DNA of 64,000 bases, from NCBI GenBank assembly GCA_963840035.1, contig CAWIXE010000002.1, positions 992,099-1,056,098 on the forward strand. Reading direction: 5' to 3'. The notes under the pieces were generated by a model, which made no database searches, was not told the origin of the DNA, and saw only the letters and a list, made by a program, of their open reading frames with translations. This DNA comes from a candidate division FCPU426 bacterium. Lineage in GTDB: Bacteria > Oederibacteriota > PGYV01 > Palsa-1178. Shown in pieces: positions 5,272 through 53,792 of the stretch. Within the stretch, counting starts at the first letter, position 1, and each line of letters opens with the position of its first letter. A program made the position numbers and the translations under genes.

Positions 5272-7197
5272 CTATTTTAGGATTACCATCTTTTTTGTTA
5301 TCGTTTTACCCTGCGCCGATACCTTTATCAGGTACACGCCGCTTGCGGCTTTCATTCCGCGCTCATTGTCAAGGTTCCATACAACTTCGTTAATCCCCGG
5401 CCGGGTGGCCGCGGCTGTAAGGGTTTTAGCCCAGACCGGCTTATTATTGATATCGGTAATCAACATACCCGCCTCACAGCTTTCCTTTAGGGGGAACCTT
5501 ATCGTTGTAAAATCCCGGCACGGGTTTGGATAGTTATAAGTCTCTGCCGGGTCAAGGGTCTCATAACGAGATTCAACAACTATTGGCGCCGGATTTTTAT
5601 CCGCAAGGACAAAAACCCTAGCGCATTTCTTGCGGGTGTCAATGGCATACTCAACGCCGCATTTCCCGCAGTAAATAATGACACCTTCCGGGAAACCCCT
5701 GGTTAAGAACAACCTGAATAAATTGTCGGCAATTACGCCAAAGTTGGACTTATTGCATCCTTTTTCAGCCATATTGAATTCGCATGATTTTATGGCATGG
5801 CCCTTTGACGGCAGTTCTATATAAATCTTTTCAAGCTTTGTAAAATGGTCATGGGACATCCTGAACCTGAAAACATGCATGCATTTAACTGCTGTCGTTG
5901 CCGGAGTTATTTCGGTTGTGGGCACTTGTGTAGGCATCACGGTTGCCGTCTCTTTAATTATTACAACCACTGTCGCTGTTTCAGTTGGTGTTTGTGTAAA
6001 TGTTTCTGTATCAACAGGCGTTTCAGTAAACGTTTCAGTATTGGTTGGCGTTTCAGTAAACGTTTCAGTATTGGTTGGCGTTTCAGTAAACGTTTCAGTA
6101 TTGGTTGGCGTTTCAGTGAAGATTTCAGTATTGGTTTGTGTTTCAGTGAAAGTCTCAGTATCAGCAGGAGTCTCCGTGAACGTCTCCGTGGCTGTAAATG
6201 TTTCCACAGGCAGCTGCGTCGGTTCTTCAATACGCAGTTCAAAAACAGCTACGCCTTCAGGATAGTTAAACTGCCCCGGCAACGGGCCCTTTACAGCCCC
6301 GAAACTCTTTTCAAACAGTCCATCGGAATTAAATTTCTGTACCCTGTTATTGCCGGCGTCAGCCACATATACATAACCCTCTGAATCCACTGATATGCCG
6401 TATATGTCGCCAAACTGCCCCGCAGCCGCGCCTTTGCTTCCCCATTTTAATTCAAACGCGCCCTCGCGCGAGAACCTCTGCACCCTGTAATTATTCGCGT
6501 CAGCCACATATACCCTGCCGCTGCTGTCGATTGCGGCGGCGCGCGGGTAATTGAACTTGCCTTCCGCCGACCCTATTCCGCCGATTATCTGAAGCGCGTT
6601 GCCGAACGCGTCAAGTTTTTTAACCCTGTTATTTAAAGTATCACATACATATATCAGTCCTGTAACGGTGTCAACTGCCACACCCTGGGGGTTATTGTAG
6701 TCCATGATACCGCTGCCGGCCTTTGTTGAGCCAAAAGTCATAGCCCATGTACCGTCAGCGTTTAAGACCTGTATTCTGTTGTTTCCGGTGTCAGCCACTA
6801 CCACGCGTTCAAGCCCGTCAGTGACTATAACTGCAATGCTGTTCGGGCTGGAAAAACCGCCATTAAGCTTGCTGCTTGCCGGCCCGCCCCAGGTCCCGCG
6901 CCAGTTTCCTGAAGTGTCAAATACCTGCAGCCTGTTATTACCCGTATCAGCTACATATATAAGGCCGCTTGCCATTCCTGCCGCAATGGAACCCGGATAA
7001 CTAAACTGGCTTACCCCGCTGCCTTTTGAGCCCCATGACATAATAACATTGCCGTCAAAATCCATTGATTGGATCCTGTAATTTGAGGTATCAGAGATGA
7101 ATATCGAGCGGATTGTCTGGGCTTGTGTATTATTTGCCAGGAGTAAAAGTACTGTAAGGCTGGTCAGCGTTTGTAGGAGTGATTTTTCTGTTTTCAT
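5272..7197 (-). CDS. secreted NHL-repeat protein with Thr-rich tandem-repeat linker and T9SS-type (Por/FlgD-Ig-like) C-terminal domain
   Basis: Start set at MKTEKS (RBS AAGGAGGTG upstream); repeated 'YVADTGNNRLQVF'-type NHL blades; 'TNTETFTETP' repeats; C-terminus 'NYPNPCRDFTTIRF...GVYLIKV...KKMVILK'. Confidence 0.7.
   Translation of the reverse strand: MKTEKSLLQTLTSLTVLLLLANNTQAQTIRSIFISDTSNYRIQSMDFDGNVIMSWGSKGSGVSQFSYPGSIAAGMASGLIYVADTGNNRLQVFDTSGNWRGTWGGPASSKLNGGFSSPNSIAVIVTDGLERVVVADTGNNRIQVLNADGTWAMTFGSTKAGSGIMDYNNPQGVAVDTVTGLIYVCDTLNNRVKKLDAFGNALQIIGGIGSAEGKFNYPRAAAIDSSGRVYVADANNYRVQRFSREGAFELKWGSKGAAAGQFGDIYGISVDSEGYVYVADAGNNRVQKFNSDGLFEKSFGAVKGPLPGQFNYPEGVAVFELRIEEPTQLPVETFTATETFTETPADTETFTETQTNTEIFTETPTNTETFTETPTNTETFTETPTNTETFTETPVDTETFTQTPTETATVVVIIKETATVMPTQVPTTEITPATTAVKCMHVFRFRMSHDHFTKLEKIYIELPSKGHAIKSCEFNMAEKGCNKSNFGVIADNLFRLFLTRGFPEGVIIYCGKCGVEYAIDTRKKCARVFVLADKNPAPIVVESRYETLDPAETYNYPNPCRDFTTIRFPLKESCEAGMLITDINNKPVWAKTLTAAATRPGINEVVWNLDNERGMKAASGVYLIKVSAQGKTITKKMVILK
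6021..6140. repeat. 30-bp in-frame tandem repeat, 3 perfect + 1 degenerate copies, inside NHL-protein gene
   Basis: Unit 'tttcagtaaacgtttcagtattggttggcg' at 6021, 6051, 6081; degenerate copies flank. Confidence 0.85.
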
Positions 7198-7373
7198 GTC
7201 GCTCACCTCCTTCGCAGTTCCCCTCTCATTTGTAATATAGCTCACAAATGATTTTTTGTCAAGTATTATGTTAAGTATATTGTTAGTATTTAACTAAAGT
7301 GCACGAAAACGCCACTAAAATATGGTGAATTTTTGAAATATCGAATATTGTGTTTTTTGATTTTTTGCGTTTT

Positions 7374-10331: not shown

Positions 10332-10395
10332 GTAGAGACACAGCTTGCTGTGTCTCGCCTTTCAACGTCTGAGACGCAGCAAGCTGCGTCTCTAC
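10332..10395. repeat. 64-bp GTAGAGA...TCTCTAC double-hairpin repeat, copy A
   Basis: 'gtagagacacagcttgctgtgtctcgcctttcaacgtctgagacgcagcaagctgcgtctctac'; two adjacent perfect hairpins; ~97% identical to copy B. Confidence 0.8.
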
Positions 10396-10450
10396 AAAAA
10401 TCCGACTCATCAAGTAGTTCTTAGAATTGCCGTATTACATTTAAAAGCAA

Positions 10451-11104
10451 TTAAAAACTTGTTATGCAACGGGCTGTTTTCATAGGCGTTTTCTTTAACA
10501 TCGTTTTATATTTACCATATGTCCGCCATGTTAAAAAACCCATAAAACGCAAATAATAGATTTCGCATGCCTTCAAAAACGAAAATTTTTGCACCTTATT
10601 CTTATCTGAAACCGTCATTAGCCCGACCATATTCTTTCCTATGCTTGGTTTACCCTGATATAAAAACAGCGCAAAGTATGCGATAAACATTATGAACGCT
10701 ATTATCAGATTTACAGCCATTACGAGGTCGCTTATCACAACATAGCCCCGGATAAAGCCCCACTTAAATTCGCCCGTTCTTAAGTATTCCACACTCAGCG
10801 TAACACAGCTTGTTATCGCGCCGATTGGAATCATCAAAAAAAATGCGTCTATAATAAATGCTGCAGACTTACGTATCCATGACGGCTTTGCGTTAATTAT
10901 CTTAACTTTAAAATCAATGCGCTGAAAAAAATATATGAATACAAGATAAAAAACTGCCACCAGCACGCTTTTCAGTGATGAAACGGCATATACTTTTGTA
11001 GCGCCATTGCTTGATTGTATGGATGTGGCTGAACCAGGATTTAAGAAAATAAGAGCCAAAAATATAACAGTAATTATTTTATCCCAGTTTTTAATTTTAA
11101 CCAC
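10451..11104 (-). CDS. RDD family membrane protein
   Basis: Polytopic membrane protein with 'QGKPSIGKNMVGLMTV' resembling the RDD-domain G-x-[ST]-x-GK...G motif. Confidence 0.5.
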   Translation of the reverse strand: MVKIKNWDKIITVIFLALIFLNPGSATSIQSSNGATKVYAVSSLKSVLVAVFYLVFIYFFQRIDFKVKIINAKPSWIRKSAAFIIDAFFLMIPIGAITSCVTLSVEYLRTGEFKWGFIRGYVVISDLVMAVNLIIAFIMFIAYFALFLYQGKPSIGKNMVGLMTVSDKNKVQKFSFLKACEIYYLRFMGFLTWRTYGKYKTMLKKTPMKTARCITSF

Positions 11105-11147: not shown

Positions 11148-11211
11148 GTAGAGACACAGCTTGCTGTGTCTCGCCCTTCAACGTCTGAGACGCAGCAAGC
11201 CGCGTCTCTAC
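11148..11211. repeat. 64-bp GTAGAGA...TCTCTAC double-hairpin repeat, copy B
   Basis: Same sequence as 10332..10395 with 2 substitutions; lies between uvrA stop and RDD gene start. Confidence 0.8.
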
Positions 11212-11226
11212 AAAAAACAGAACAGG

Positions 11227-18518: not shown

Positions 18519-18668
18519 GTCATTGCGATGAGGCGCCTATTACTTCGCCGACAAAGTCCTTCGACTTCGCTCAGGGCCATGAGCCTGTCGAATGGCAATC
18601 TGGCTGTTTTAGAACTTAAACCAGATTGCTTCGTCGCCATAAATCAAATACGGCTCCTCGCAATGACA
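18519..18668. repeat. ~150-bp palindromic MITE/REP-like intergenic element, copy 2
   Basis: TIRs 'gtcattgcgatgagg' / 'cctcgcaatgac'; shares identical 48-nt core with 2623..2780; sits between panC and panB. Confidence 0.75.
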
Positions 18669-26717: not shown

Positions 26718-27097
26718 TTTAAGCCTCCGTAAATGCGTAAGTGTATAGTTTAAGAAATATAACATAATTGCGTTTTTTAGTCAATTTATAGATATAATGG
26801 CTGATTCGGGATTCTGGATTCTAAATTCTGGATTAAAACATCCCAAAACAATTTTACGCTTTATTTTAAAGCAATTTCCGGAAAACGGCAGACGGGAAGC
26901 TGATTTTTGAATAAGCTAAACGGGCACATAGTCATGCTTCACCTCCTGGTATATCCCAATCAAGCCGGCCCGCCAGACCAAAAACCAACCGTCAATTATA
27001 TCGCCTCAGCATCTCACATTATCACTGCAGCCTCCAGCACACCCCGTCAGCTAATTCAAAAATCAGCTTCCCGCCTGCCGCTTCTACGTGGTCTGTC

Positions 27098-31860: not shown

Positions 31861-31972
31861 ATATTTCCTCCTTTTTCCGGGCGTTCGCCCTGTGTTTTGT
31901 GCCTTCACTGAGGAAGACACCAACCCGGGAAAAAGGTTCCATAATAAAACGCATTATTTATAAGGCCATTTG

Positions 31973-31997
31973 TAGGGACAGCGCTCCCGCGCTGTCC
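31973..31997. repeat. GC-rich hairpin, inverted duplicate of hairpin at 32062..32083
   Basis: 'tagggacagcgctcccgcgctgtcc', palindromic stem 'ggacagcgc'/'gcgctgtcc'. Confidence 0.7.
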
Positions 31998-32045
31998 GCG
32001 CGGGGATTATGTTATGATTTTTAAACGTGGCTATAAATTCAGGTG

Positions 32046-32083
32046 AAAAAAAAACGCCGGCGGACAGCGCGGGAGCGCTGTCC
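32046..32083 (-). terminator. Rho-independent terminator immediately after 32084..32602 gene
   Basis: Minus strand reads 'ggacagcgctcccgcgctgtcc' followed by 'gccggcg' and U9. Confidence 0.65.
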
Positions 32084-32602
32084 CTACTCTGCGTACACCC
32101 ATTCAAAATCTCTTATTTTACTATTCCAATAAGCAATCGCGCTGTCAGCGTGAAACCGTTTAAACATGATTACCGGCGTTTTAAAAGTCCGGCCCTGCCA
32201 TGTCCCGGTGAAACTTTCCAGGCTGAGGTTATCCGGTAAGGATTTATACTTTCCCAGGAAATATTTCCTGTAATTGGAGCCTTCGCTGATCAAAGCGATA
32301 GCCTGAGCGGAAAAATTCACAACAACCCCGTTTTCCACCACATCCGACCTGACAATAAAGGCATAATCCTTTATGCCGTCAGAGTTAAAATCCGTGTTTA
32401 CATATCCCGGGCTTTTTAGTGTTATCTTGTGTTTCTTTAAAAAGGTTAAAAAATCATCGCTTAAATCCTTTACAGTCATTGTCCTTGCGTCAGGGCCGAA
32501 TGACATGAGCACGCTTTCAAAATTAAGGCCTTCAATTGGCCAGATCTGTGAAAAACAGAAAACAGGAAGTAATATTAAAACAAGTACAAAGATTTTTTTC
32601 AT
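32084..32602 (-). CDS. secreted hypothetical protein
   Basis: 172 aa, signal peptide MKKIFVLVLILLPVFCFSQ; no recognised motif. Confidence 0.5.
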   Translation of the reverse strand: MKKIFVLVLILLPVFCFSQIWPIEGLNFESVLMSFGPDARTMTVKDLSDDFLTFLKKHKITLKSPGYVNTDFNSDGIKDYAFIVRSDVVENGVVVNFSAQAIALISEGSNYRKYFLGKYKSLPDNLSLESFTGTWQGRTFKTPVIMFKRFHADSAIAYWNSKIRDFEWVYAE

Positions 32603-35269: not shown

Positions 35270-35395
35270 ATAACCCTCCTATATGAGTAGATAACGACAT
35301 AATTATATATAGTAAAAGGTTTTTTTGCAATGTTTTTGAAGCAGGTTATTGACATCAGGACATGGCTTGCCACCCACTACTCACCACCCACTACC

Positions 35396-37470
35396 CTACC
35401 TCACACACACCAGCTTCTCAAACCCCTGCGCCTTTTCCCCTGTCTCTATCTGCGCTGTGACCGAGTATATAAAAGTCCCTGAAGCTATGTGTCTTTTTGC
35501 CCTGTTTTTTCCGTCCCAGTGGAAGTTATTATGGCCGGCTTTCGCGTTTATGCCGCATTCTTCTATGACTATCTCGCCTGATACGGTAAACACCCTCACG
35601 CACACCTCAGCGTCCCTTGAAAGCCAGTAAACTATGTTTGTGTCCTCGGCAAAAGGGTCGTTATAATTGCCTTTTAGTATAAGCTGTAACCGCGGAGTTA
35701 CCGGGGTAACAGTTGCAGACGCCTGCGGTGTCGAAGTTACTGTGCGGGTCGGTGTTGCAGTAATTGTCTTTGTAAATGTCAATGTTGGTGTAATTGTCCT
35801 TGTTATTGTTTTTGTCGGGGTAAATGTCATGGTCTGAGTTTTTGTAATCGTATCTGAAACAGTCATTGTCGGCGTTATGCTGAAAGTTGTTGTCATGGTC
35901 TGCGACGGTGTCAGTGTTTGCGTGACAGAATTAGTCAGGGTGACTGTCCGGGTCGGCAGAAGCGTTTCTGTGTGTGTTACGGTATAACTCGGGGTCTCAG
36001 TCAAGGTATCCCCGGGCGTCTGCGTCTGTGTATAAGTCGGGGTCCTGGTAAAAGTCGGCGAATTCGGACTTGTTGCGGTCCTTGTCGCTGTTCTTGTTCC
36101 GGTCGGAGTGCGCGTTGGCGTTACTGTAGCGGTAGAAGTGGATACGAAATCCGTCATCCCTGACCCGCCCGGATAGCCATATCCATCCTGGTCGTCAAAA
36201 CCGTACACGTTGACGCCTATTGGAAGCGGTGAAATAATGTTGTGGCTCCCGACCCCGACGCTTACGCGCGTGGCCGAAAAACCGCTGGATGCAATAGAAA
36301 TAAAACTACCCGCAGGTATAACCGAACCGTCAACTGATAATAGCCCGGCTGCGGCGTCAGGGGCAGTGATATTTAAATAATTCGCAGAGAAACCGGATTG
36401 TGGCGTCCCAACAGTGTAATTATCCAGATACTGCTCGACAGGTTCTATAATCATCATGAACGGGTCGCCGGTTGTGGAATCAAACATGGTGCTGTTTGAA
36501 TACTGCATAACAAGCACCCGGTTGTTCGAAGTTATCATTCCCGCCCCGCTGATTAACGCCTCAAAAAACGCGCCTTTGACCATAGGCGACGGGTTTAAAA
36601 GAGCCCCGTCAAGGTACAGGTATGTGCCGTTTTGTGACGCCATAATTCTGTAGGTATCGGTCCCTGACCTTCCCGCAAGCGGAACGATAATAAATTGTTT
36701 CCCCCAGCTCGATGTCGGGGCAGCTGTTCCACAAGGTAATTGCAGTAGTTGGATGACACCGGGATATCCGCGCAGATATGGCCCCCGAAAACAGCAATAC
36801 GCCTGTCAGAATCCACGGTTGTTCCGGTTAAATCCTCACTGCCGGGATTGTCATCTCGCAGTAAATAGACCTGCCCTTTATTCAGAATTACGTCATACGG
36901 GACATTCTGGATCCTGCCGCCTATCGTGCAGTTAAGCCTGATTGTCACCGTGGTGTTATCTTCGACAGCCACTACGGCAAATTCACTTCCTACCGGGTTA
37001 TTTACGCCGCCGTTATTGAATGAAAGAATTATATGGTTGGTGCCAAGCGCTTCCACAGGAAGGCCCAAAAACGCGTCTGTAATGACAGGGCTGTGCGAAT
37101 AACCGTATACGGTTACCGGATCAGCCGAGGTTACATGTATACCCCTCACCGAAACAACGTCGCTGTCAAAAACGTCGCTGTTCCATGGCAGGTCCACATA
37201 GGTTATAGCGCCGGCAGTCACATTTACATTTTTGTTAAACGTCAGGACCGGCGATAAGGATATGGTCATGTTCACGGTTGCTGTCGTATTGGTCTGTGAA
37301 GTGATGAGTATTTGCTTTGCAGGCGATATTCCCGAACTGTAAGGCGAATAATATGACCCCGGGATGCAAATCCAGAAATCAGTCCCTTCGCTGGTGGGTG
37401 AAGAAAATGCATAAAACGGCATTATGAAAAGATATGCCATTACTGTCAAAACCTTAATTTTTAATTTCAT
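35396..37470 (-). pseudogene. frameshifted gene for secreted IgGFc-binding-like domain protein with Thr-rich linker and T9SS-type C-terminal domain
   Basis: ORFs 36595..37470 and 35396..36643 are one gene: the '...NYCNYLVEQLP' frame continues as 'PTSSWGKQFIIVPLAGRSGTDTYRIMASQNG...' in the next frame; shift at G4 run 36717..36720. Confidence 0.6.
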
Positions 37471-37558
37471 TCCCGCTCCAGTAAGGATGGACTTATTTCT
37501 CTATAAATATATCGGAAATATGGGAGAAACCTTGAATTGAATTAATGTTTTAAACACC

Positions 37559-37725
37559 GGTAGCCCGCAACCTTCGAGATGCTATTGCTAGCCTTGGCGG
37601 GCAAACATTAAATCAGCGCAATTCATCTAATCTTGCCGTGTTAATCACGGCTGGTTGCGAAAGGCAGGTTCTCGCCCGCCTGACACCGGCAGCCAGCCTT
37701 GCGCAACCTGAAGGTTGCGGCTACC
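37559..37725. other. GC-rich ~170-bp intergenic element with nested inverted repeats (candidate structured RNA or MITE)
   Basis: Closing stem 'ggtagcccgcaaccttc'/'gaaggttgcggctacc'; internal 'ggcgggc'/'gcccgcc' and three 'gcaacc'/'ggttgc' pairs. Confidence 0.3.
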
Positions 37726-37729
37726 AGAA

Positions 37730-40212: not shown

Positions 40213-40896
40213 CTAATTCAATCCTTCTTTATACCTGTCCTCAACTTTAACATTCATTATATCCGTGACTTTTGTCAATACCGCGTCAAATTCCGCCTCT
40301 TTTCCCTCTTCGCAGATAAGGTAAGCCCTGAGCGCCACAGAATCGCTTACCATGGCGTTTTTTACAGGCAGGTAATAGCCCGCCTCTACAGGCCCGGGAT
40401 TATAACCGGTGGTAAAAAACTCCACTACCAGGTTTGTTTCAAGTCCGCCTTCGAGCCTTAACCCAACTGTAAGGGCCAGGTTCATGGTTGTATAGTCCAT
40501 GTAATACTTATACACTTTATCTATGTTATAAACAATTTTTTCAAAGATATACTTGATCTCAGCCGGGGTATATTTGTGGAAAAACTCGTCATCTACCTCG
40601 ATAATCTCCTCATCAACTTCATCCATGGCCTGCGATACCGGGTCCGCAGGCGCGTGTTCGTGCTCAGGACCGTGCTCATGGCCGCATTCCTCGCATTCAT
40701 GAGTATCATTTTCCATGGATAAAAACTTCTTGATATCTGCCATCTCCGGGTCATTTACAGATTTTAAAGCGTCCCTTAAGTCCTCAAGCTCCAGGCATGT
40801 TATGCTGCCCTGCTCCACATGGCCGTTTAAGGTAAACTGATACAGAAAATCAGGTATCATTGAGGCAAGATCCAGGTTAAAATTAATTTTTTGCAT
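40213..40896 (-). CDS. hypothetical acidic protein with His/Cys/Glu-rich motif
   Basis: Start set at MQKINFNLD; 'HECEECGHEHGPEHEHAP' metal-binding-like stretch. Confidence 0.5.
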   Translation of the reverse strand: MQKINFNLDLASMIPDFLYQFTLNGHVEQGSITCLELEDLRDALKSVNDPEMADIKKFLSMENDTHECEECGHEHGPEHEHAPADPVSQAMDEVDEEIIEVDDEFFHKYTPAEIKYIFEKIVYNIDKVYKYYMDYTTMNLALTVGLRLEGGLETNLVVEFFTTGYNPGPVEAGYYLPVKNAMVSDSVALRAYLICEEGKEAEFDAVLTKVTDIMNVKVEDRYKEGLN

Positions 40897-42011
40897 TATG
40901 CTTATTCTCCGCTTCCATTTTGAGGTAGGCCTCGACATATACATCCAGGTCGCCGTCTAAAACTTTATCCACATCGCTGCGCTCCAAGTCGGTGCGCAGG
41001 TCTTTTATCATTTTATAAGGGTGCAAAACATAAGAGCGTATCTGGCTGCCCCACGCAATCTCGCGCTTATCACCGGCTATCGACGCAATGTTCTCCTTAT
41101 GCTGTTCTTCTTTTATGGCTACCAGTTTGGATTTTAGGACTTTCATGGCTATTGCCCTGTTTTTCATCTGGGAACGGTCTACCTGACAGGCTACAATCAC
41201 TCCGGTGGGTATATGGGTTATCCTGATGGCTGATTCGGTCTTGTTCACGTGCTGTCCGCCTGCGCCTGATGACCTGTATGTATCGACTTTCAGGTCTTCC
41301 GGCCTGATATCCACTTCCACGTCTTCTTCTATCTCGGGAATGACCTCCAGCGAGGCAAATGAGGTATGCCTGCGCTTGTTGGAATCAAATGGCGATATCC
41401 TGACAAGCCTGTGAACGCCCTTTTCCGGCCGGAAACAACCATAGGCGTAGTCGCCTATGACTTCAAAGGTCACATTTTTAATGCCAGCCTCGTCGCCGGG
41501 CATGGAATCAGTGACATTTACCTCAAAACCTTTCTTTTCACACCACATTACATACATCCGCAGCAGCATCTGCGCCCAGTCACAGGACTCTGTCCCGCCC
41601 GCGCCGGCATGCAGGGTTACTATGGCGTTGCTTCTGTCATATTTTCCGGAAAACATCTGGTTGAATTCTTCGTTATCCACAGCCTTCTTTAATTCCGCAA
41701 ATTTCTTCTGAAGTTCAGCCTCAAGCGACGCGTCTTTCTCGCTTTCAAGGAGTTCAAGCGTCACTTCAACCTCTTCAATTAAAGTGTTTATTTTATTTGT
41801 TTTTGTTATATCGTTATTGATGGCTTTTAACTTTAACTGTACTTCAGCCGCAGCCTTATTGTTGCTCCAGAAATCAGGCTCGGCAGTCATTGTCTCCAGC
41901 TTTATTTTTTCAACTTTCTTGTCTTTAACGTCAAAGATACACCTCTATCTTCGATGCTCTCTGCTTAATATCAGACAATGCTGACCTTATTTCCTTTATT
42001 TCCAGCGCCAT
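40883..42011 (-). CDS. prfB: peptide chain release factor 2, with programmed +1 ribosomal frameshift
   Basis: Frame 0 'MALEIKEIRSALSDIKQRASKIEVYL' ends at CTT TGA C (41936..41930) preceded by SD-like GAGGTG; +1 frame continues DVKDKK...; 'SPF' and 'GGQ' motifs present. Confidence 0.9.
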
Positions 42012-45468: not shown

Positions 45469-46659
45469 CTAATAAGTTCCGTTGCTGTCCGTTTTAACAA
45501 AATATATGTTATATGAATTTTCGCCTGAAGGATTCTTTACCCATCCTGTTACCGCAATTCCGAAGTCCTTAGAGAGCGCGATACCTCCGAGATAATCGTC
45601 CATTTTGGTCCCGAAATTCCGGCTCCACAAAGGCGTGCCTGAACTGTCAGTCTTTATAATATACAGGTCGCTGCTGCCCTGGGTAAAGGATTCGCTAGTG
45701 GAACCTATTACATAGCCGCCTTTACCGTCGCTAATCACAGACTCACCGAATTCATTCAGCATGTCGCCGTACGTCCTGGCCCATACACAATCCCCTTCGG
45801 CGTCGGTTTTAACCAAGTATATGTCATTATTTTCAGCGGTTGAAACATATGTAGTGCCGCATATCAAATAACCGCGGTCGTCAGTTTGTATTATCTTGGC
45901 AGCGCTGTCATCTAAATTTCCGCCATACGCTCTCGTCCACACCGTATTTCCGCTTAAATCAAATTTTACGATTGCGGCATCAGTTTTTTCTTTTACATTT
46001 TTTACGGCTTCGCCTGAGACAACATATCCCCCGTCAATGCCCGCAATTATGCATTTTGCCTTGAATGAATGAAAACCAGCATCCGTCACTTTCGTCCACA
46101 CGCTGTTTCCGTCCTGATCTATCTTTATCAGCATGCATGAATACCGATTTGATTTAAGGGGGTCATGCGCTGAACCCGCAATTATAAAACCTCCGTCAGA
46201 AGTTTCCATGATGGCAGACGCCTCTTCATTCTCCGCGGTACCGTATGTCCTCAGGAACTTTATATTCCCTTTTTTGTCCGTTCTGACAGCTAAAAAATCA
46301 GCAAGGCCGGCGCCGTATGATGTAGTTGCCCCGGCCATGACAAAATCACCGTTTGAAGCGATTACTACAGAATAGAACCGATCATCCCCAGCTCCGCCAA
46401 AATAATTGTCCCATTGCTTTTTTCCATGACTGTCAAGTTTAAGCAAGTATGCGTCCACATAACCGGCGCCAGCGGCAGTGGACATGCCGGCAATGACATA
46501 ACCGTTATCATCAGTTGCTTTTATATCCCGCGCGCTGTTATATTTTACGCCGGTAATAACAGCGGGTTTTATACGCGAAGGCGGCAATACTGACAGCACG
46601 GCGGCAAATATTCCGGATAAAATAATTACAATAAATATTATAACTGCCATTTTTTTCAT
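45469..46659 (-). CDS. membrane-anchored beta-propeller repeat protein (SBBP-like repeats)
   Basis: N-terminal anchor; six to seven repeats of the pattern 'YGG..D...S...T.DGGY...G.T.S.G.G..D..L.K.D..GN..W'. Confidence 0.5.
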   Translation of the reverse strand: MKKMAVIIFIVIILSGIFAAVLSVLPPSRIKPAVITGVKYNSARDIKATDDNGYVIAGMSTAAGAGYVDAYLLKLDSHGKKQWDNYFGGAGDDRFYSVVIASNGDFVMAGATTSYGAGLADFLAVRTDKKGNIKFLRTYGTAENEEASAIMETSDGGFIIAGSAHDPLKSNRYSCMLIKIDQDGNSVWTKVTDAGFHSFKAKCIIAGIDGGYVVSGEAVKNVKEKTDAAIVKFDLSGNTVWTRAYGGNLDDSAAKIIQTDDRGYLICGTTYVSTAENNDIYLVKTDAEGDCVWARTYGDMLNEFGESVISDGKGGYVIGSTSESFTQGSSDLYIIKTDSSGTPLWSRNFGTKMDDYLGGIALSKDFGIAVTGWVKNPSGENSYNIYFVKTDSNGTY

Positions 46660-46674
46660 ATTATTCTCCGATTG

Positions 46675-46974
46675 TTAAAGGATTTTACTGGCTTTATTAT
46701 TGGATTTATAGACAAACACGAGCACTTCCGCTATGAGTTTGTATAGTTCGGGCGGTATTTCCTGGCCTAAATCAAGCTTCGAAAGCACTTCAATAAGGTC
46801 CGGGTCTTCGTGCATCGGTATGTTATGTTTCCTGGCGAGCTCGATTATCTTATCCGCCATTACCCCTTTACCTTTGGCTACTATTTTAGGGGCCGAATCC
46901 GTATTTTTATCATAATGTATGGCAAGCGCCTGTTTCTTTTTCTGTGGAAGGTTTGGGCTCAGCTTTTCATCCAT
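46675..46974 (-). CDS. FlhB C-terminal-domain paralog (YlqH/FhlB family)
   Basis: 'ALAIHYDKNTDSAPKIVAKGKG...IPPELYKLIAEVLVFVYK' aligns with the FlhB C-terminal domain in this window ('IAVALRYKEGVDGAPTVVAKG...IPNELFQAVAEILAFVYQ') but lacks NPTH. Confidence 0.75.
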   Translation of the reverse strand: MDEKLSPNLPQKKKQALAIHYDKNTDSAPKIVAKGKGVMADKIIELARKHNIPMHEDPDLIEVLSKLDLGQEIPPELYKLIAEVLVFVYKSNNKASKIL

Positions 46975-46976
46975 TA

Positions 46977-49616
46977 TTATGCCTGAAGGTTGATCCTGCC
47001 GACATTTACATAACCTTCACCCGAGGAAGGCGAAGAACCGGCTTTTTCGCTGTCTATTAGTATCTGAAATGCCTTCATATTAAAATTAACAGTATTTAAG
47101 CCTTCCATGAAGTCGTTTTTGCCCCTCATAAGCGCCTGCTTTGCCTTTTCGCTTGCTATGTTTACCGTGCATTCGACGTCGTTCTTATGGATCGTCATGC
47201 TTATCTTCACGCTGCCCAGGTTGGATGTATTTAGCATGAAGACAATATTTACAGGCATTGATTTTTCAAAACTGTCTTTTACTCCGCCTTTCCTGAACCA
47301 CACCTGGACTTCACCGTTAAAGAGTTTGTTGCTTAAGAATACGGGAAGCTGCGCGTATATCATCTCAAATGCAGCGGGTTTCTGGTTTATAAACTGCAGC
47401 GCGTTCATGTTTGTGAGTATGTCCGTTGCAGCGTCCTTTATCTGGCGTATTGATTCCTTGTGGGCGGGGCTTAGCTTGTATGAATCCATATTTTCGGTGA
47501 CCGAGCCCAGCTTAATCAGCGCCGACTTAAGGTTGTCTTTCATGCCCGCAATGTCCGTTGCGAGCCTTGCGGCCGCCTGATTGTTATCCTTTACTATTGA
47601 CTCATTTTTCAGGACAGCGTCCTTTAGTTTGTTCTCAATATTTAGCCCGCTTGATTCCATAAAACTCTTCAACTGCTGTTCTATAACCTGCTGTTTTAAG
47701 TTAGTATCCTCCGGGTTTATGACTACCTGGCGGATGGCGGTTTTTACGGCTTCAGCAGCGTTATACAATGCCGCGATATAAGGGGCATCCTCTTTTGGCA
47801 GGGCGTTTGACTGTTTAAGGCCGTCAAAACGGTTGATGGCATTGGATAGTTTCTCCAGTCCCTGGTTTAATTTCATGTCATCCTTAAAATATTTTCCCAT
47901 GGTATCTATGAATTTGTCATTGCCTGTCGATATATCCCTGGATTTAAGAAACGTCAGCGACTCCACCGTCGATTCGACATCAAATTCCGCGTTGGCAGCC
48001 GTGATCTTTAAAGCCTGGCTTTCCGCAACCCGGGGTTTAATTACGCTGAGCAGCTCGCTTTTCGCCATAAAATCTTTCATAACTGACTGAAATTTTAAAT
48101 AATCTTTGGGCGCTATCATTGTTTCTTCAGGATTATTCGTTATGCCTGTTTTTTGGATCAACTGGGTTATGTTGTCCGCCGCCTTATTTATCTCAGACCT
48201 GAAATTGTTTATCTGGCCCTGGGTTATAACCGATTTATCAACTGATTTATCAAGCCCTTCGCTTAACATCGTTATCCCGACATTTAACTTTGTTATGGCG
48301 GCGGCTATATCCTTAACGTTCTGGGGGAGGTTTGTTTCTCCGGGAGTTAACACATTCCTTTTTAATTCGGCGAATGAATCCCTGATTCCGGTTATTATCT
48401 GTTTCGCCTGCTGGTTTACCGCGTCAAAAATATCCGCTTTCTGATTTATGCCGTCAGGAGCCTTAAGGGCCAAAGCCTGGCTCCCAAGAAGTTTATTTAC
48501 AAAAACGTCCCTTAAGGCATTCGCGGCAGTATTTTCAGAAGCCTGCCCCGTTGACGGGGATGTTATAAACGCCTCCATGTCCGCCTTTAAGCTGCCAAAG
48601 GTTATTTCCAGGTCATTGTTAGGAGACATTGTCATCCTGATGTTTGCTGAATTTATAACGGCAGGCTGCCCGGTGGATACGGCCGCGATCATAACTTTAG
48701 CGTCAGCTGACGATATAAGCCCGTTCTTGACGGAATCATAAACAGCGTTTTCCATAATCTGCTTTGACGCGTTTTTAATTGTTACTGTTACACCGCCCTG
48801 ATTTGCCGCCACATTTATATCCCTGACCTGGCTGGAAACGCCGGCCAGCGTATTTATGATGTTTGTAAATTTTATCGCGGTGCCGGTCTTATCTCCGGAT
48901 GGCTGCGCAAGTGAGACGGCCTGCGCGGGCTGTTTTAGAGATTCCGGCGTATTTGCCGCAGCGGTTTCAAGCGCCTGAAAAGGCTGCGATATCTGAGCGG
49001 CTTCAATGGCGCTTTTGGCTGCATTTGCGGCTTCGGCGCTGAGTTTTATCATCCCTGAAACAAATACTTCTTTGGCCACGGGAAGGGTCTCAATATTCAA
49101 CGCCCTGATATCTATACCTTTTGCGTCCATGTAGCGTATCAGGCTCTGGTTAATATCCGCCATGTTCTGGGCTGTCACAGGCAGGTGATAGTCCATAAGT
49201 TTCTGGGCGATAAAAATATTTTGTTCATTGACAGGCACTTTGATATTTGTCAGCGTCTGCATAATCTGGCTTAATGAAACCTGCTGTCCCTGGAGTTGCG
49301 GGATATCCGCGCCTTTTCCTATATCAGCGGCAGGATTGGGTATTAGTTTCATCATGATCTGATTATTTATCTGCGATACTTCCACATTAATTATGTCGCC
49401 CTTCTGGACGCCCATACCCTGCGGAAGCTGAGATATTATGTTATACCCTTTAAAGTTTATAATGGCTTTATTTTCTCCGGGAATAATGTCAACCACCCTG
49501 CCTTTTAGGGTATCTCCGGGGTTTAATGTGGCGATAAAATCCCTTATGTCCTTATCAGCCGCGTTCAAAAGCTGGAATAAATTTTGATTTACGCTTTGTA
49601 CCGACATTTTTTCCAC
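46977..49616 (-). CDS. large FliK-like (hook-length control domain) protein
   Basis: 879 aa, Gln/Asn/Ala-rich; C-terminal region resembling the FliK Flg_hook domain; flagellar-locus context. Confidence 0.4.
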   Translation of the reverse strand: MEKMSVQSVNQNLFQLLNAADKDIRDFIATLNPGDTLKGRVVDIIPGENKAIINFKGYNIISQLPQGMGVQKGDIINVEVSQINNQIMMKLIPNPAADIGKGADIPQLQGQQVSLSQIMQTLTNIKVPVNEQNIFIAQKLMDYHLPVTAQNMADINQSLIRYMDAKGIDIRALNIETLPVAKEVFVSGMIKLSAEAANAAKSAIEAAQISQPFQALETAAANTPESLKQPAQAVSLAQPSGDKTGTAIKFTNIINTLAGVSSQVRDINVAANQGGVTVTIKNASKQIMENAVYDSVKNGLISSADAKVMIAAVSTGQPAVINSANIRMTMSPNNDLEITFGSLKADMEAFITSPSTGQASENTAANALRDVFVNKLLGSQALALKAPDGINQKADIFDAVNQQAKQIITGIRDSFAELKRNVLTPGETNLPQNVKDIAAAITKLNVGITMLSEGLDKSVDKSVITQGQINNFRSEINKAADNITQLIQKTGITNNPEETMIAPKDYLKFQSVMKDFMAKSELLSVIKPRVAESQALKITAANAEFDVESTVESLTFLKSRDISTGNDKFIDTMGKYFKDDMKLNQGLEKLSNAINRFDGLKQSNALPKEDAPYIAALYNAAEAVKTAIRQVVINPEDTNLKQQVIEQQLKSFMESSGLNIENKLKDAVLKNESIVKDNNQAAARLATDIAGMKDNLKSALIKLGSVTENMDSYKLSPAHKESIRQIKDAATDILTNMNALQFINQKPAAFEMIYAQLPVFLSNKLFNGEVQVWFRKGGVKDSFEKSMPVNIVFMLNTSNLGSVKISMTIHKNDVECTVNIASEKAKQALMRGKNDFMEGLNTVNFNMKAFQILIDSEKAGSSPSSGEGYVNVGRINLQA

Positions 49617-49638
49617 CTTTGTTCTTTATTTATATAAT

Positions 49639-49665
49639 ATATCGGAAATCCGCTGAAAATCTTTA
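49639..49665 (-). promoter_or_regulatory. sigma-28 (FliA)-type promoter TAAA-N15-TCCGATAT
   Basis: On minus strand: TAAA (49665..49662), 15-nt spacer, TCCGATAT (49646..49639); about 25 nt upstream of the FliK-like gene start. Confidence 0.45.
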
Positions 49666-52297: not shown

Positions 52298-53068
52298 TCA
52301 CCTCTCCCGTTCCAGTTTCCTGAAACCGCTCCTCAGTTTTATAATCAGTTTTGTATGTATCTGACACACCCTAGATTCAGACACATTCATCGCCATCCCT
52401 ATTTCCTTAAGCGTCAAACCATCCCAGTAATACATCTCAAGCATGGCTCTTTCTTCGTTATCAAACTTTTCTATGATTTCAGCGAGGTGGCTGACAGCTT
52501 CTTTTTTCTCAAATTTCTCGAGTGTGCTGTCACTTTCGCCCATTATGTCTTCAAAATAGAAAGAATCCCCATCGCTGCTAAGGATTTCACTGTCCATAGA
52601 TATAAGAGAAATCCCTTTCATTTTATCGAGTATAACATAAAACTCTTCCTTTGTCATCCTCATTTCTTTCATAATTTCCTCATCATTTGCGGGCCTTCCA
52701 TACTCCGATTCAAAGCGTATATAGGCCTGTTCCAGCTTTTTTATCTGTTCCCTGACGTTCTTTGGAAGCAGATCCTCCTTGCGCAGCGCGTCAATTATGG
52801 CGCCCCTAACCCTTTTTGACGCGAATGTCTCGAATTTGACGTTTTTTTCAAGGTCAAATTTGTCAATGGATTCCATGAGGCCTATTATGCCTTCAATATA
52901 AAGGTCTTCCTTGTCGTTTGAGCGTACTTCCTGCGGAAGGTGTGAGGCTATCCTGTCAGTCATGTATTTAACAAGGGGCATGTAGTTTTTTACAAGCAAT
53001 TCCCTGTCTTTATCATTTTTATTCCTGACGTACCTTTTCCACAACTCGTCCGCATTGATATTGTCCAT
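52298..53068 (-). CDS. fliA: RNA polymerase sigma factor for flagellar operon (sigma-28)
   Basis: sigma-70 regions 2, 3, 4; 'LTLKEIGMAMNVSESRVCQIHTKLIIKLR' region-4 HTH. Confidence 0.9.
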   Translation of the reverse strand: MDNINADELWKRYVRNKNDKDRELLVKNYMPLVKYMTDRIASHLPQEVRSNDKEDLYIEGIIGLMESIDKFDLEKNVKFETFASKRVRGAIIDALRKEDLLPKNVREQIKKLEQAYIRFESEYGRPANDEEIMKEMRMTKEEFYVILDKMKGISLISMDSEILSSDGDSFYFEDIMGESDSTLEKFEKKEAVSHLAEIIEKFDNEERAMLEMYYWDGLTLKEIGMAMNVSESRVCQIHTKLIIKLRSGFRKLERER

Positions 53069-53073
53069 AGCCC

Positions 53074-53427
53074 CTATTTTCCGTAAATATCATCAAATAA
53101 ATCGTCATCCACTTTGGTAACAATGTCTAATTTCTTTCCTTTTATCGGATCGCTTTTCTTTAAACCCGCCGGTTTTTCCGCCGGCATGTTTTTTTTATCA
53201 GCTGTAAATTCTTTAACGGCAGTTTCCGGGCCGTTTTTACCGGCGAAAACCAGCTTTAAGGAATAGAAAACAGCGATAAAAACAATTACTCCTGTTATTA
53301 CCGCGGATAAGACTATTTTAATGATATCCGCGTCATTTACATTTATAAGCCCGCCGATAAAAAAGCCCAATACCCCGGCTAAGATAGCGGCTTCAGCGTA
53401 TGTTTTATTATCAGTTTGTCCGCTCAT
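53074..53427 (-). CDS. hypothetical small membrane protein
   Basis: 117 aa, two hydrophobic helices; overlaps PilZ gene by 4 nt. Confidence 0.4.
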   Translation of the reverse strand: MSGQTDNKTYAEAAILAGVLGFFIGGLINVNDADIIKIVLSAVITGVIVFIAVFYSLKLVFAGKNGPETAVKEFTADKKNMPAEKPAGLKKSDPIKGKKLDIVTKVDDDLFDDIYGK

Positions 53428-53792
53428 TTTTTCTTGTTGGGTTTGGCTTTTACGCCTTCCCTGAGTATGTATTTGATCAGCCTGTCCTGGTCCGGGCCTT
53501 CCAGGTCCTTGAATTTGATAACAGCCTCAAACTGGCCGCCCGATATTTCCTTCATGCCGATTATGGTTCCTGCTGTATCTATCGGCTTTTCCCCGGGAAG
53601 CTTTACCGCTATTTCAAGCAGCGTCCCTTTTTCTATCTTCTTAGGGACAAACATGGTCATGCCGTTCCCGCTTATAGTGTCGGTAAACGATGTATTCGGG
53701 GCTATAGCGGTGCTTGCGAACCTTTCTATTATTACCTTATACTCGATCTCAACCCTTTTCTGAAGCCTTACGTGATCCCTTCTTTCAGCCAT
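53424..53792 (-). CDS. PilZ domain protein in flagellar operon (YcgR/MotI-like c-di-GMP receptor)
   Basis: 'RRDHVR' (RxxxR) and 'DTISGNG' (DxSxxG). Confidence 0.7.
   Translation of the reverse strand: MAERRDHVRLQKRVEIEYKVIIERFASTAIAPNTSFTDTISGNGMTMFVPKKIEKGTLLEIAVKLPGEKPIDTAGTIIGMKEISGGQFEAVIKFKDLEGPDQDRLIKYILREGVKAKPNKKK

Follow-up and report, generated by a model that had tools for sequence, protein, structure and literature searches.

In Bacillus subtilis the promoters of the sigma-28 class follow the consensus TAAA-N15-GCCGATAT, and the SigD-dependent autolysins of that organism are non-flagellar members of its sigma-28 regulon. The corresponding consensus of Escherichia coli is TAAAGTTT-n11-GCCGATAA, and mutation of -35 position 1, 3 or 5 of the aer promoter in this species abolishes sigma-28-dependent activity, position 2 lying outside that study (PMC2859248). 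Further cases are the flagellar co-expressed determinants (Feds) of Campylobacter jejuni, a term confirmed in the literature, and the WhiG-controlled type IV pili of Rubrobacter (PMC8325347). That sigma-28 regulons can extend to secreted or surface proteins without a flagellar role is already well known, and the result presented here leaves established sigma-28 biology unchanged; what is new is a predicted member of such a regulon in an uncultured phylum, together with a lineage-specific consensus. As with the Feds, the SigD autolysins and the Rubrobacter pili, a gene that does not build the flagellum stands behind a sigma-28-type promoter and its product is secreted or surface-exposed. Unlike them, the cargo combines an IgGFc_binding domain with a C-terminal domain resembling the sorting signals of the type IX secretion system (T9SS), the organism belongs to an uncultured phylum, and the link to the flagellum is predicted, conserved and yet optional.

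The stretch of DNA analysed here, 64 kb in all and referred to as the window, contains exactly two copies of the 14-mer AATATATCGGAAAT (plus strand; ATTTCCGATATATT on the minus strand), at 37506-37519 (site 1) and at 49636-49649 (site 2), and all of the genes relevant to them lie on the minus strand. Site 1 is placed in the 259-nt gap (37471-37729) that precedes the IgGFc_binding gene, its 14-mer ending 35 nt before the ATG at 37470, and the 14-mer of site 2 ends 28 nt before the ATG of a fliK-like gene at 49607, an alternative GTG at 49616 falling 19 nt past its end. Both copies are intergenic, co-oriented with the downstream gene and less than 200 nt from its start codon; with up to two mismatches allowed the window yields two additional matches (33789 and 58452), both intragenic and in the opposite orientation. 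The preliminary description of this DNA had reported an identical 14-mer at the two places and had read it as part of a sigma-28 promoter; the identity is exact, and its coordinates, distances to start codons and -35 readings all proved correct on re-inspection.

Each 14-mer forms part of a complete two-part motif, T(A/C)AAG-N14-TCCGATAT. The minus-strand sequence of site 1 runs TCAAG (37531-37535), gtttctcccatatt, the -10 element TCCGATAT (37509-37516) and atttatagagaaataagtccatccttactGGAGcgggaATG, followed by the ATG at 37470, and a GGAG ribosome-binding site (37476-37479) stands 6 nt before this ATG and is also kept in two relatives, L001 and L007. Site 2 reads TAAAG (49661-49665), attttcagcggatt, TCCGATAT (49639-49646) and attatataaataaagaacaaaGGTGGaaaaaATG, followed by the ATG at 49607. 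Written in the spacing form, the sites are TCAA-N15-TCCGATAT and TAAA-N15-TCCGATAT, respectively. They share with the promoters of the FliA/SigD/WhiG group the bipartite structure, the 15 nt from TAAA to the 8-mer, the CCGATA core, a position 30-60 nt upstream of a start codon and a cognate sigma gene in the flagellar cluster. The 8-mer agrees with GCCGATAT at seven of eight bases; relative to the E. coli -35 consensus TAAAG, site 1 carries a C at position 2, and it has a T instead of a G before CCGATA. Measured against TAAA and GCCGATAA, site 1 accumulates three mismatches and would fail the two-mismatch rule applied in one earlier study (PMC8325347). It is nevertheless likely, in our estimation, that the 14-mer represents the -10 region, in extended form, of a promoter dependent on FliA (sigma-28).

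The candidate sigma factor is encoded close at hand. The fliA gene (52298-53068, minus strand) scores 213.9 bits against TIGR02479 (FliA_WhiG), for which the cut-off is 189.6, and the closest solved relatives of its product in the PDB are WhiG and FliA. The gene is separated by 2.7 kb from site 2, which lies downstream of it, and by 14.8 kb from site 1, and belongs to a flagellar cluster ordered fliM-fliN-fliO-fliP-fliQ-fliR-flhB-flhA-flhF-flhG-pilZ-orf-fliA-fapA-orf-DUF2802, after which site 2 follows. The first gene beyond site 2 (46977-49607, minus strand) encodes a fliK-like protein of 876 aa with a C-terminal Flg_hook domain (PF02120, 36.7 bits). Behind it come a 99-aa protein made up solely of the FlhB C-terminal domain (46675-46974, minus strand; TIGR00789 flhB_rel, 110.7 bits, just under the cut-off of 117.35) and a 396-aa beta-propeller, lipoprotein-like protein (45469-46659, minus strand) with weak SBBP/LipL53-like matches. 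The gaps between these genes measure 2 nt and 15 nt, the three probably share one transcript as judged from this arrangement, and the same order, with a lipoprotein-like protein of ~395 aa, recurs in the relatives L010, L011 and L012. From the fliK unit to site 1 is a distance of ~12 kb, past zapA/zapB/pheT, prfB and a GFO_IDH_MocA oxidoreductase gene. The preliminary description had spoken of co-regulation with late flagellar genes, and site 2 does precede a flagellar gene; the target, however, is the fliK-like/flhB-like/lipoprotein-like unit and not flagellin, and no flagellin gene was found within the 64-kb window. Two minor features fall in this part of the window. The prfB gene (minus strand), which encodes RF2, carries a programmed +1 frameshift at TAT CTT TGA C (41930-41936), with a first ORF that runs from an ATG at 42011 into the frameshift site, itself preceded by a Shine-Dalgarno-like AGAGGTG, and a main ORF at 40883-41890; this frameshift is genuine, unlike the break in the surface-protein gene that is discussed below. 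Within the PilZ gene (53424-53792) lies a motif close to the E. coli sigma-28 consensus, TAAAG-N14-GCCGATAG (53578-53605, minus strand), with the 117-aa ORF in front of fliA ~150 nt downstream; by the weight matrix described below it is the third-best match of the window, its 15.5 bits equal the level of shuffled maxima, and L010 and L011 show no counterpart above 15 bits at that position. Either a weak autoregulatory promoter or a chance match is conceivable.

Further evidence comes from relatives of this organism. A protein search returned 24 homologues of the window FliK, several of them named Candidatus Goldbacteria, and FliK homologues at 35-41% identity are labelled Candidatus Goldbacteria or Goldiibacteriota, while one orthologue of the surface protein bears the label "Spirochaetia bacterium"; by these names the lineage is probably Candidatus Goldbacteria-like. 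Goldbacteria are reported to have flagellar genes, sister clades being without them (PMC7031533). A scan of genome contigs with PheT identified one relative only, L004, a metagenome-assembled genome (MFD03726.bin.1.65), and a scan of metagenome contigs with the FliK alignment found no relative. The five closest homologues of the surface gene with readable context are syntenic, in the order pheT-prfB-...-[gene]-...-lysA-dapF where visible, the contigs of L008 and L013 being short enough that synteny is visible on one side only. Upstream of the surface gene the motif reads TCAAG ctttccgctgtttt TCCGATATA in L001 (66% protein identity), TCAAG aatctcccttatta ACCGATATA in L007 (48%), TAAAG ttagctttaaaata ACCGATATA, with a canonical -35, in L008 (47%) and TTAAG ttttttcatttttt TCCGATATA in L013 (49%), so that CCGATATA is unchanged in all five motif-bearing regions, the window included. 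The two half-sites and the 15-nt spacing are therefore kept across proteins that have diverged to 47-66% identity, which argues for selection. In an alignment of the window with L001 the promoter block and the ribosome-binding site align, and past the -35 element, in the upstream part of the intergenic DNA, the alignment is lost.

The fliK promoters tell the same story. The gap between DUF2802 and fliK contains the motif in all five genomes read, as TAAAG-N14-TCCGATAT in the window, L004 and L011, as TCAAG-N14-TCCGATAT in L012 and as TCAAG-N14-GACGATAT in L010. Taken together, the ten promoters have a 15-nt spacer without exception and a -35 element that varies at position 2 only (A in four, C in five, T in one, the rest being T-AAG). 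The positions critical at aer, 1, 3 and 5, are invariant in all ten, and a variable position 2 beside fixed positions 1, 3, 4 and 5 agrees with the E. coli mutational data. TCAAG is on these comparative grounds probably a normal variant of the lineage and not a defect, because it also occurs at the fliK promoters of L010 and L012; the preliminary description was right that TCAA departs from TAAA by one base, and its reading of this -35 as a weak match finds little support beside those two flagellar promoters. The lineage differs from the sigma-28 consensus in having T or A, not G, before CCGATA, A, C or T at -35 position 2, an extended T-rich stretch before the -10 element and ATA(T/A) after it. 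The two 14-mers of the window are probably identical because both lie near the same consensus and share a T-rich spacer, not because DNA was duplicated; duplication was considered and set aside, as the flanks of the two sites differ. Unlike classic sigma-28 targets, the flagellar target is fliK rather than flagellin, and the promoters of this lineage are predicted ones.

Not every homologue is so equipped. Two homologous loci lack the motif, namely L005, which is syntenic, and L014, which has no visible synteny and a different upstream neighbour. In L005 (5392-6004), and also in L006, a PIN toxin-antitoxin pair lies between the GFO_IDH_MocA gene and the surface orthologue and overlaps the start of the latter, and by this arrangement L005 illustrates the natural replacement or loss of such a promoter. 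The surface gene itself is absent from three syntenic, flagellated relatives, in the regions 4724-7168 of L004, 20706-22514 of L011 and 20170-22239 of L012. Because it is missing from these flagellated genomes, the gene is, as far as this comparison goes, an optional insert at a fixed place and not a core flagellar component. L004 has nearby instead a gene for an 814-aa beta-propeller protein with a C-terminal domain of the FlgD_ig type, upstream of which the sigma-28 motif is absent.

Could the conserved block be read by something other than FliA? It might be recognised by a housekeeping sigma factor that takes TATATT for its -10, by a different alternative sigma factor or by a regulatory DNA-binding protein, and there are points in favour of such a reader: CCGATATATT contains TATATT, which approximates TATAAT, TTCAAG loosely resembles TTGACA, an ECF sigma/anti-sigma pair is encoded 3 kb downstream, and the connection of FliA with site 1 is a predicted one. 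The bases that have stayed invariant are, however, CCGATA and T-AAG and not those of a TTGACA/TATAAT pair, TATATT would require a spacing of 19 nt, and a scan of the gap at 37471-37729 on the gene strand for sigma-70 patterns returned no promoter. The same motif precedes fliK within the flagellar cluster of five genomes. ECF-type promoters are commonly quoted as GAAC-N16-CGT, and this pattern is not matched. A reader other than FliA is accordingly an unlikely explanation of site 1. A match of sigma-70 type, TTGACA-17-CATAAT with 11 of 12 bases, occurs at 37421-37449 (minus strand), past the ATG and within the part of the surface gene that encodes the signal peptide; it is probably a chance match, because the N-termini of the orthologues align from the ATG at 37470. 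A riboswitch or small RNA was also entertained for the conserved block and dropped, as Rfam returned no RNA family anywhere in the window.

The FliA-type promoter predicted at site 1 would serve the surface-protein gene (35396-37470, minus strand), which in this assembly appears as two overlapping ORFs (36595-37470 and 35396-36643). The encoded protein begins with an N-terminus that by inspection resembles a Sec signal peptide (MKLKIKVLTVMAYLFIMPFYAFS/S), continues with an IgGFc_binding domain and ~180 aa of Thr/Pro-rich linker, and ends in a C-terminal domain of ~95 aa. The IgGFc_binding domain (PF17517) is full-length across the two frames, positions 1-127 of the profile matching in the first ORF (119 bits) and 147-297 in the second (82.7 bits), and 497 homologues were obtained at an E-value of 1e-10 or lower. 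Restoring a single C to the homopolymer at 36717-36720 (minus strand; C4 in the window, CTGCCCCGACATCG, vs CTGCCCCCGACATCG in L003) joins the two frames. L003, the Logan assembly of run ERR11594406 and thus an independent short-read assembly, aligns to the window along 15,413 nt without a mismatch and with a single gap, which is precisely this C5 vs C4 difference, and it encodes an intact protein of 691 aa (P0122, in the same 90% cluster) that is identical to the frame-restored reconstruction. Exact look-up of the two split ORFs in the protein collection gave no match. Homopolymer errors are typical of long-read assemblies, and the window may come from one. The frameshift is, from this comparison of assemblies, almost certainly an assembly error, and since the break is a homopolymer error the annotation should show an intact gene; a pseudogene or a genuine frameshift, which had been candidates, were rejected on the same C5 and intact ORF in an otherwise identical assembly. 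The gene had been described as frameshifted in the preliminary description, a view that no longer stands now that the break is confined to one assembly.

These observations bear on the possibility that site 1 resembles a sigma-28 promoter and is inactive or very weak in vivo, so that no meaningful co-regulation with the flagellum would result. Such a reading would be suggested by the C at -35 position 2 and the T in place of G before CCGATA, by a gene that reads as two ORFs in this assembly, and by its dispensability, the gene being absent from L004, L011 and L012. Against this stand the intact frame in the otherwise identical assembly, the use of TCAAG at the fliK promoters of relatives, and the conservation of half-sites and spacing across 47-66% protein identity, and we regard an inactive site as quite improbable. 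Site 1 is instead probably a real and functional sigma-28-type promoter, by virtue of its motif and its conservation, and expression of the surface protein is probably coupled to that of the flagellum.

Downstream of the surface gene the search for a terminator was unsuccessful, the interval 35270-35395 giving no hit in a pattern scan and an RNA fold equal to shuffles (z = -0.05), and for this reason transcripts may conceivably extend into the genes for the fatty-acid desaturase and the ECF sigma/anti-sigma pair. A sigma-70-like site, TTGCAA-17-TATAAT (35330-35302), precedes the desaturase gene.

The C-terminal domain of the surface protein deserves separate treatment. In the 415-aa ORF it reaches 25.1 bits against FlgD_ig (cut-off 27), with weak matches to the C-termini of PorU and PorZ, and the PF18962 and TIGR04183 profiles do not match this ORF; taken in isolation, the domain scores 28.1 bits against FlgD_ig. 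The orthologous domains are more readily recognised, five of seven matching Por_Secre_tail (PF18962; best E-value 1.6e-6) and four of seven CHU_C. A profile of the seven orthologous domains, compared by hhalign with the C-terminal domains of Ignavibacteria homologues, gave a probability of 99% and an E-value of 2.9e-18, and most of those homologues are annotated at source as "T9SS type A sorting domain-containing protein". By profile comparison, then, the domain is homologous to T9SS-type sorting domains. The label T9SS-CTD given to it in the preliminary description is borne out as regards homology and less so as regards the curated models, since the full ORF falls below the Pfam cut-offs and TIGR04183 finds nothing in it. 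The protein resembles T9SS type A cargo of Bacteroidota and Ignavibacteria (PF18962/TIGR04183) in its signal peptide, in a passenger of adhesin type and in the ~95-aa length of its C-terminal domain; unlike such cargo, it stays under the curated PF18962 and TIGR04183 cut-offs, and its NPF motif is degenerate (NDPF). To our knowledge the phylum is not known to have a T9SS. A search of the 64-kb window for T9SS component genes, such as those of PorK/L/M/N, Sov/SprA and PorU/V, found none, and a term search of the Goldbacteria paper met type IX secretion solely in a reference on Cytophaga (PMC7031533). A second surface-type protein is encoded at 5272-7245 (minus strand), with NHL repeats, 30-nt tandem repeats at 5954-6223 and a C-terminal domain that scores 26.0 bits against Por_Secre_tail and 25.7 bits against FlgD_ig, both just under the 27-bit cut-offs; the organism therefore has several proteins with such domains. 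The sigma-28 motif is absent upstream of this gene.

How much of the resemblance between sites 1 and 2 might arise by accident can be judged from the composition of the window. The shared 14-mer is by itself not significant, because ~37 repeated 14-mers (27-48) are expected by chance according to second-order Markov shuffles; 200 are observed, the excess deriving mostly from tandem repeats inside genes and MITE-like elements. The CCGATA core shows no intergenic enrichment, 3 of its 41 copies being intergenic in the window where ~3 would be expected (non-coding DNA makes up 7.5%). The signal that rises above chance is the whole two-part motif at its proper location. Four fliK promoters, all from genomes other than the window, provided a weight matrix that covers the -35 pentamer and 14 columns around the -10. 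With it site 1 ranks first in the window at 27.4 bits and site 2 second at 27.2, no other position exceeding 15.5; the maxima of 300 Markov-2 shuffled windows have a mean of 15.3 (sd 2.0), the largest being 22.1. Across ~220 kb of lineage DNA, on both strands, scores of at least 19 bits occur solely upstream of fliK and of the surface gene, the latter scoring 27.4 bits in the window, 24.8 in L001, 21.2 in L007 and 19.3 in L013; the L008 site, at 15.7 bits, is still the best match of its locus. The preliminary description had called for a genome-wide count of the 14-mer, in place of which this lineage DNA was scanned with the matrix; the sigma-28-type promoter that it suggested before the surface-protein gene is supported by the matrix ranking and by conservation at four other loci. 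That two unrelated AT-rich intergenic stretches merely happen to share 14 bases, as the abundance of repeated 14-mers and the lack of intergenic enrichment of CCGATA might lead one to think, is scarcely credible when the match extends to a -35 element spaced at exactly 15 nt, both sites score ~5 bits over the best of 300 shuffled windows with a matrix derived from other genomes and the motif is kept at the orthologous position in four further distinct genomes, and the shuffles and the lineage scan effectively refute it. A dispersed repeat or mobile element was likewise rejected, the flanks of the 14-mer being different and neither site belonging to any repeat family of the window.

With sigma-28-type promoters at both sites as the preferred reading, a simple scheme can be proposed, in which we infer FliA binding, the transcript start and the co-expression of the two units from sequence. 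The FliA holoenzyme would recognise T(A/C/T)AAG, 14 bases and then (T/A)CCGATATA, the lineage consensus, its matrix being drawn from fliK promoters alone. At site 2, just downstream of the fliA operon, it would start the fliK-like/flhB-like/lipoprotein-like unit, and at site 1 the gene of the secreted IgGFc_binding surface protein with its T9SS-type C-terminal domain. Initiation at site 1 would take place a few bases downstream of 37509, at ~37500-37503 if the usual sigma-28 geometry applies, and would produce a leader of ~30 nt with the GGAG ribosome-binding site. The surface protein would then be made whenever FliA is free, at the same time as the fliK-like unit is expressed. A further-reaching proposal, which we put forward as doubtful, is that in Goldbacteria-like bacteria the FliA regulon includes a conserved branch for the expression of an adhesin-like protein with a T9SS-type sorting domain, so that swimming cells would be pre-armed for attachment. 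Members of the Goldbacteria phylum are reported to bind cellulose (PMC7031533), and if the proposal is true such swimmers would perhaps attach to particles such as cellulose. It would also imply a working T9SS-like route of export or anchoring outside the Fibrobacteres-Chlorobi-Bacteroidetes, and in a flagellated rather than a gliding organism; the locus would gain in significance if its C-terminal domain served as a functional T9SS signal in such a flagellated organism, one that stands apart from the Bacteroidota group. At the level of the promoter, T(A/C/T)AAG-N14-(T/A)CCGATATA is a predicted motif and a first comparatively supported sigma-28 consensus for an uncultured phylum, useful for the annotation of Goldbacteria metagenome-assembled genomes and for predicting the surface proteins of motile cells.

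The window also contains several repeat structures. A MITE-like unit of ~130-160 nt with inverted ends (TGTCATTGCGAGGAG...) occurs twice between genes, at 2622-2781 and 18541-18668, with ~90% identity. Two copies of a 74-nt palindromic element, 95% identical (10332-10405 and 11148-11221), flank an RDD-family gene at 10451-11104. A 42-nt inverted repeat, 86% complementary and with a 117-nt spacer (26883-27083), lies upstream of an SPFH/Band 7 gene, and a perfect 28-nt inverted repeat with a 60-nt loop (31972-32087) separates a VIT/VWA gene from the next gene.
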